Assembly (NCBI RefSeq): GCF_006345805.1
Contig: NC_042998.1
Location: forward strand, 195,424,001 to 195,488,000
Direction: 5' to 3'
DNA: 64,000 bases
Source of the DNA: Octopus sinensis
Taxonomy: Eukaryota
A model generated the notes under the pieces. The model saw only the letters and a program-made list of their open reading frames with translations, made no database searches and was not told the DNA's origin. How positions within the stretch are numbered: the first letter of the stretch is position 1; the number at the start of each line of letters is the position of its first letter. This document shows, piece after piece, positions 1,809-62,795 of the stretch. The position numbers were made by a program, and so were the translations under genes.

Positions 1809-2118
1809 TACCGATTATCCCAGATTATTTGATAGAGAAAGACAAAGAACAGCTGAAACAAACCTTAAGAGGATATCATCTAAAAGTCTTTGATAATCGT
1901 ACAAGTTTACAAATCGTAGTAAACCGGACTCAATATATAAACTTCACTGGCAACTTTAGTAACAGTCCGGATGTGGGTGGAAGATTCAGTATTGTACAAG
2001 ATATCTTCTCCATACCATTAAATAAGCTCAACGAAAATACACGTGTCGGCTGGCTTCTCTCTTCCAAAGCGATTGTTCAACTCATGTTCAACTTCCTCGT
2101 AGGACCATTTACAAACAG
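1809..2118 (+). CDS. SLC18A: SLC18 exon a: end of TM1, luminal loop, TM2 (VPIIPDYL...[20 protein letters not shown])
   Basis: tttcag|ta acceptor and ag|gtaagg donor; 310 nt. The loop has four N-x-S/T sequons (NRT, NRT, NFT, NFS). Confidence 0.95.

Positions 2119-62795: not shown

Follow-up and report, generated by a model that had tools for sequence, protein, structure and literature searches.

The closest described relatives of the transporter analysed here are VMAT1 and VMAT2 (SLC18A1/A2), VAChT (SLC18A3) and Drosophila melanogaster Portabella (prt, CG10251, SLC18A4). For VMAT2, D399/Y341 and E312/Y433 are described as two acidic amine sites, histamine is bound via E312/Y433 without the N305-D399-Y341 contacts, and neither dopamine nor serotonin is taken up once D426 has been replaced by Asn or Ala (PMC12721464). 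D426, which makes no substrate contact, may act as a protonation site and hinge (PMC11695631); it bonds S200, and N388 faces E312 (PMC10959523). Papers on fly prt call it an orphan among vesicular transporters, present in Kenyon cells and of unknown substrate (PMC3479168, PMC6894929, PMC8566550). Residues are numbered below by their VMAT2 equivalents unless octopus or fly numbering is indicated. An Asp in TM1 and in TM10 combined with a Gln in TM11 is what we take to be the published hallmark of Portabella.

Descriptions of prt are centred on insects. In PMC13205867, which uses the name SLC18A4, the invertebrates in the tree are fly, bee and the study's psyllid, and a 2026 bivalve preprint (10.64898/2026.08.17.745212), whose prt outgroup consists solely of fly and bee sequences, describes protostomes as having a single VMAT. 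In the study of Goulty et al. (2023, PMC10244343), such leaves are labelled VMAT throughout, prt being unnamed in the text and supplements searched; the leaf list contains another block of sequences from Daphnia, Drosophila, Crassostrea, Lottia, Stegodyphus and Capitella, each under the label VMAT2, and this block is probably the Prt clade without its name. Our literature search, which did not extend to orthology databases and most subscription papers, found no paper naming prt outside insects, so that prior recognition is possible.

Gene structure and the TM11 glutamine

The window, i.e. the whole 64,000-nucleotide stretch of Octopus sinensis DNA that was analysed, contains most of a gene for a 505-residue SLC18 transporter with a Pfam MFS_1 match (E=8e-46). 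According to the reconstructed gene model (Table 1), all introns are GT-AG and 14 of the 16 coding exons lie inside the window. The span of 1809 to 62795 given in the original prediction thus holds 14 exons, but coding continues beyond both of its ends: exon 1 is found some 1 kb before the window and the last exon some 3.3 kb after it.

Table 1. Features of the octopus gene and its surroundings (window positions unless a contig is named; residues in octopus numbering, with VMAT2 equivalents after the equals sign).
Feature	Position	Strand	Remarks
Coding exon 1	G000:C2:195422986-195423124		Upstream of window; carries D39
Coding exon 2	1809..2118	+	End of TM1, luminal loop, TM2; K133, Q137
Coding exon 3	4021..4079	+	AG/GT ends
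Coding exon 4	6420..6503	+	TM4; R184
Coding exon 5	18226..18318	+	
Coding exon 6	26292..26381	+	GYP.GG motif at 26294; Y231=P236, codon 26297-26299
Coding exon 7	27807..27847	+	Its 3' intron is the only one not common to the octopus VMAT gene
Coding exon 8	32047..32110	+	
Coding exon 9	33622..33717	+	TM7; T300=N305, E307=E312, W313=W318
Coding exon 10	39047..39125	+	TM8; F.PDS.GY motif at 39055; D332=A337, codon 39064-39066; Y336=Y341
Coding exon 11	41800..41851	+	TM9
Coding exon 12 (11th inside window)	43630..43694	+	Start of TM10; PHF..GLG motif at 43667; H383=N388, codon 43670-43672; spurious base 43645
Coding exon 13	47512..47631	+	TM10-TM11; DAAL.PLLA..VD motif at 47520; D394=D399, Q421=D426, V424=F429, Y428=Y433
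Gln421 codon	47601..47603	+	CAA; Portabella-type residue (D. melanogaster Prt Q521)
Coding exon 14	52641..52686	+	
Coding exon 15	62708..62795	+	TM12
Coding exon 16 (last)	G000:C2:195491326-195491421		Downstream of window
Repeat element	48799-50433		1.6 kb, in the intron after the TM11 exon

TM11 reads YSISQIAV, and its Gln421 aligns with the Asp of human VMAT2 YAIADVAF, that is, with D426. All eight VMAT2-equivalent residues that had been listed as kept are present, namely K138, Q142, R189, E312, W318, Y341, D399 and Y433 (octopus K133, Q137, R184, E307, W313, Y336, D394 and Y428), and the equivalent of D33 is kept as well (D39, in exon 1). The four motifs GYP.GG, F.PDS.GY, PHF..GLG and DAAL.PLLA..VD, named as Portabella-like in the original prediction, are indeed found in D. 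melanogaster Prt, but the octopus VMAT, too, carries the Pro-His pair at the N388 position.

One extra T at position 43645 in the assembly shifts the frame of exon 12. The base is missing from the covering contig in three of the four sequencing runs (X1, X16 and X17; X22 has zero depth there), and for this reason we regard it as an assembly error; X1 possibly stems from the very sample that was assembled. When this base is removed, the spliced frame is identical, letter for letter, to XP_036356544.1 (P0005), annotated as 'LOW QUALITY PROTEIN: synaptic vesicular amine transporter-like [Octopus sinensis]', a label of the VMAT type that had been anticipated for automated annotation. The frameshift in the assembly would suit a pseudogene or decaying duplicate, a reading ruled out by the absence of the extra base from the sequencing contigs and by an intact O. 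vulgaris protein that is 99% identical to the octopus window protein. Two O. bimaculoides models (P0001 and P0004) skip the TM8 exon carrying Asp337 and Tyr341, probably owing to an annotation or assembly gap.

The substitution of D426 by Gln was confirmed both in the DNA and in exon-limited contigs: in X16 and X17 the contigs start and stop where the TM11 exon does, and the neighbouring unique bin of the intron has zero depth. This pattern is the one expected of spliced transcripts and suggests transcription of the gene, the RNA nature of the runs being presumed. A-to-I editing of CAA yields Gln or Arg codons only, so the earlier statement that it cannot create an Asp holds. Covering contigs of X1, X16 and X17, a kind of data that drops rare variants, had no letter differences at this exon, where the raw-read run X22 has zero depth; on both grounds RNA editing to Asp was ruled out. 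The intron following the TM11 exon contains, between (TA)n runs, an element with near-perfect inverted arms (337 nt at 98% and 90 nt at 99%) and internal repeats, which looks like a foldback or MITE-type transposon.

Placement in the Portabella clade

Searches with the octopus protein were evaluated for the best 120 of 635 and the best 150 of 3175 matches. The first matches listed were molluscan and nemertean proteins named 'synaptic vesicular amine transporter(-like)', all of them with Gln at the D426 site. A search with a blowfly member led to proteins named portabella, and a cluster look-up led to D. melanogaster Portabella itself (P0405, NP_001097887.1). In a FastTree phylogeny of 147 rows (44 of 191 candidates were removed for core coverage below 85%), a Prt clade of 56 rows was recovered with a support of 99. 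The clade was recovered with 26 rows at 100/99 in an IQ-TREE analysis (LG+G4) of 62 hand-picked rows from which four trait columns had been removed, and it persisted at 97/96 upon removal of five whole motif regions (66 more columns). A quick tree of 35 rows, again picked by hand, calculated with the C20 mixture model gave the Prt clade an SH-aLRT of 98. Inside the clade, the window protein belongs to a molluscan subclade (100/98) and fly Prt to an ecdysozoan one (100/98). Constraining the window protein to group with 19 canonical VMATs was rejected (p-AU 6.5e-6); the nesting inside the VMAT clade that the original prediction had named as its refutation is thereby turned down, and its proposal of a lophotrochozoan prt orthologue is upheld by the grouping with fly Prt in the maximum-likelihood trees. 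The window protein sits on the VMAT-like side of SLC18A in the 62-row tree, which holds no named SLC18B1, yet it is not nested in the VMAT clade and has no Asp426 in TM11. It likewise falls outside the VAChT clade and lacks the W334/F338/H341/D200 pocket of VAChT. Taken together, the sequence comparisons make it almost certain that the window gene is the octopus orthologue of Drosophila portabella, on a branch apart from VMAT and VAChT.

The 26-row clade comprises molluscs, nemerteans, an annelid, a tardigrade and arthropods. Named members of the Prt clade include a chiton, gastropods, bivalves, Lineus, Tubulanus, Owenia and Hypsibius and, among arthropods, Limulus, Centruroides, Tetranychus, Daphnia, Macrobrachium, Lepeophtheirus and many insects; among the species-named rows of the matches listed, no deuterostome, nematode or flatworm fell in the clade. 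The window gene joins a known orphan family, and the range of this family, as read from the trees, is much wider than the papers found suggest.

Pairwise similarity gave a different picture. Measured on the best single segment, the octopus protein scored 360-387 bits against insect VMATs, 330 against bee Prt and 283 against fly Prt, and fly Prt scored 310-316 bits against molluscan VMATs and 269 against the octopus window protein; a genome search with fly Prt matched only the intronless VAChT genes in octopus. The reciprocal BLAST that had been proposed as a check therefore failed, each protein scoring higher on the other phylum's VMATs, and reciprocal similarity was discarded as an uninformative test of orthology. 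Such a failure is expected for faster-evolving paralogues, and the tree takes precedence. The same scores account for the VMAT mislabel of the window gene, because they favour VMAT over fly Prt. They are also what speaks for a divergent molluscan VMAT paralogue that gained Gln426 independently. This reading conflicts with the AU test, with the persistence of the clade after removal of the motif regions and with the intermediates found in tardigrade, chelicerates, nemerteans and annelid; together with the decaying duplicate dealt with above, we consider its probability to be close to negligible.

A divergent clade of P0171 (Acanthaster), P0195, P0255 and P0265 has lost D426 (Thr or Ile; Thr in both P0171 and P0195) and carries Arg at Q142. 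The echinoderm-type genes P0171 and P0195 were considered as deuterostome Prt and came out as sister with 90/77 and 88/93 under LG+G4, but not under the mixture model, leaving this assignment unsupported.

Fold comparison and residue signature

The predicted structure has a 12-helix fold (mean pLDDT 83) that is closest to VMAT2 and VMAT1 (rmsd 2-3.5 A), and the top 47 Foldseek matches of the model are all VMAT or VAChT. The octopus protein shares 40% identity with fly Portabella over 359 aligned residues. Fly D59, D483 and Q521 correspond to octopus D39, D394 and Q421, so that the Asp residues of TM1 and TM10 and the Gln of TM11 coincide, and both proteins have Y236, T305, D337, H388 and V429. 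They differ in that the octopus protein has a shorter luminal loop, lacks the TM10-TM11 insert of the fly protein and has Leu instead of Met at 308. VMAT1, VMAT2 and invertebrate VMAT have the fold in common with the octopus protein at about 40-44% identity and share D33, K138, Q142, R189, E312, W318, F334, S338, Y341 and D399 with it. The octopus protein departs from them by D426Q, A337D, N388H, N305T, P236Y and F429V, by the lost conservation of S200 and L228 and by its position outside the VMAT clade. VAChT is alike in the SLC18A core and in the equivalents of D33, E312 and D399 (about 35% identity of the octopus protein to the solved structures) and, unlike the octopus protein, has D426, W334, F338, H341 and D200.

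To what extent these differences characterize the clade was determined by residue counts in 352 proteins with all diagnostic columns (41 of 393 were removed for lacking one). Gln426 was found in 177 proteins and Asp426 in 159. The Gln426 proteins had Asp337 (176 of 177), His388 (174), Tyr236 (173), Val429 (171) and Thr305 (161) and retained Glu312 (174) and Asp399 (175), whereas Asp337 was present in a single one of the 159 Asp426 proteins. By these counts, the clade signature is wider than D426Q and includes P236Y, N305T, A337D, N388H and F429V. D426Q, originally called the defining feature of Portabella, is one of at least six clade-wide changes. Since the proteins are kin from one clade, many of them from flies, the counts measure conservation and not repeated co-evolution. 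Position 200 is Ser in all 19 canonical VMATs vs 3 of 26 Prt-clade rows, a loss as expected if the D426-S200 bond is gone. D399, Y341, E312 and Y433, the residues of the amine sites, are all retained in the window protein and conserved from octopus to fly.

Several members deviate from this pattern. Gln426 is replaced by Glu in those of Owenia and Lepeophtheirus, and the nemertean-type proteins P0018 (Lineus), P0081 (Tubulanus) and P0022 have Pro-Glu at 304-305, i.e. an extra acid beside D399. In Tubulanus P0081, residue 399 is additionally Asn and residue 341 Gln, as though the acidic side chain had been relocated.

Paralogues and probable origin by duplication

The octopus genome encodes canonical VMAT and VAChT-type transporters beside prt. 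The separate VMAT gene, whose existence had been posed as a check, is split over contigs C14 and C11719, i.e. on contigs other than that of prt (C2), a point against the overall explanation given below, and has N305, E312, A337, D399 and D426. Like Prt it has His at the N388 position, in the presence of Ala337 and Asp426 (L013:2544-2618, G000:C11719). Two VAChT-type genes (G000:C8702:874934-878989, L005/L012, and G000:C5, L004) are intronless, lie at other loci than prt and belong to different subgroups of the VAChT clade; they are single open frames of 461 and 621 codons, in contrast to the multi-exon prt and VMAT genes.

The window gene matches the octopus VMAT gene in the position and phase of 14 of its 15 introns, two of which were checked on the acceptor side only. 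In all four other species that have both paralogues among the matches listed (Gigantopelta, Argopecten, Tubulanus and Ceratina), the two genes are on equally long contigs, that of Ceratina being a 3.6-Mb scaffold. We infer from gene structure and linkage that an old local duplication of a VMAT gene with many exons gave rise to prt, at the latest in the protostome ancestor. The span of the Prt clade from molluscs, nemerteans and an annelid to tardigrade and arthropods agrees with the ancient protostome origin that had been predicted and, on the trees, places the duplication at least in the protostome ancestor. A date before the split of protostomes and deuterostomes may or may not apply, since a topology joining Prt to the VMATs of protostomes alone passes the AU test (p-AU 0.46).

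Prt represents a conserved third SLC18A branch across protostomes. A practical consequence is that cells marked by 'VMAT2-like' genes in atlases of molluscs, annelids and chelicerates may not be monoaminergic.

Candidate transport mechanism and rival functions

For members outside insects, transport activity and vesicle location are predictions made from the sequences. As an overall explanation we lean towards a prt orthologue performing vesicular antiport of a non-classical amine. Whether the window protein would be a proton-driven vesicle antiporter for a small basic, non-classical amine that VMAT loads poorly is, taken separately, an even call. In such a mechanism, suggested by the residue signature, the equivalents of D399/Y341 and E312/Y433 would still bind a cationic substrate, and Gln at 426 would remove the hinge and protonation site. 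The new Asp337, a single helix turn away from both F334 and Y341, would together with His388, which is close to E312, assume the role of proton coupling or else hold a second basic group. N305T, I308L/M, P236Y and F429V would reshape the pocket away from catecholamines and serotonin. A counterpoint is that His388 is also present in the octopus VMAT, there without Asp337. More broadly, Prt likely loads a vesicle cargo in far more animals than insects. The search for its substrate can move to Lymnaea, Elysia and Biomphalaria, which carry the gene and whose large identified neurons make mass spectrometry of single cells practical.

The Prt orthologue might instead tune the filling of vesicles that contain acetylcholine or glutamate, acting there as an exchanger or a leak for protons in the manner of C. 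elegans VST-1. Fly Kenyon cells co-express prt and VAChT (PMC6894929), neutralisation of D426 inactivates monoamine uptake by VMAT2 (PMC12721464, PMC11695631), 'opponent' vesicular transporters exist (PMC8566550) and the substrate of fly Prt is called unknown (PMC3479168), all of which would be in line with such a function. The amine-binding residues that are conserved from octopus to fly would, however, be needless for a mere leak, and new polar residues are fixed on the pocket-lining helices. We regard vesicle tuning as unlikely, though deserving serious attention. Ranking directly after it, and also unlikely, is the loading of a known amine such as histamine, tyramine/octopamine or a conjugate, e.g. 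carcinine, with altered selectivity or proton stoichiometry, which would make Prt a second VMAT and would involve no new transmitter. The gene itself goes back to a duplicated VMAT, and residues 337 and 388, both changed in Prt, are close to E312, through which VMAT2 binds histamine (PMC12721464). On the other side, a canonical VMAT is encoded in the same genome. In addition, fly Prt is reported not to carry classical monoamines, which counts against a known amine.

An unrecognised neurotransmitter system in octopus, as put forward in the original prediction, stays a hypothesis carried over from the fly. Fly Kenyon cells are cholinergic (PMC6894929), and Prt therefore need not define a transmitter. 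Vertical-lobe cells resemble gamma Kenyon cells according to Styfhals et al. (PMC9712504); the expression supplements searched, including three files of that study, contained no entry for the window gene. By analogy, Prt could mark an ancient small-molecule transmitter kept for more than 500 million years in molluscs, annelids, nemerteans and arthropods and loaded via an Asp337-His388-Glu312 arrangement replacing Asp426, and the octopus gene would be active in amacrine cells of the vertical lobe, in parallel with prt in the Kenyon cells of the fly. We consider this extension speculative and improbable in its full form; if true, the memory centres of protostomes would share a molecular marker and a chemistry.

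The role in octopus could also lie outside neurons, e.g. in the loading of granules by cells of pigment, retina or glands. Squid Vmat2-4 (EB48422), which has no fly or human orthologue assigned in the supplement of PMC12240821 (Table S4), marks photoreceptor r1 and pigmented retinal cells, a distribution that would fit if this were the squid counterpart. Vmat2-4 may equally be a divergent cephalopod paralogue (L002, Argonauta P0222), and the insect orthologue is neuronal (PMC6894929); a non-neuronal role is accordingly held to be highly doubtful. The paralogue in question is a fourth SLC18A-type octopus gene (G000:C4:25751248-25751358, L002/L025) close to Argonauta P0222. In P0222, E312 is changed to Leu and D399 to Ser with D426 kept, and the octopus exon likewise shows the Ser and the Asp. 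Judged by these residues, amine binding of the VMAT kind is impossible for the product of the fourth gene, which may be a further orphan transporter.
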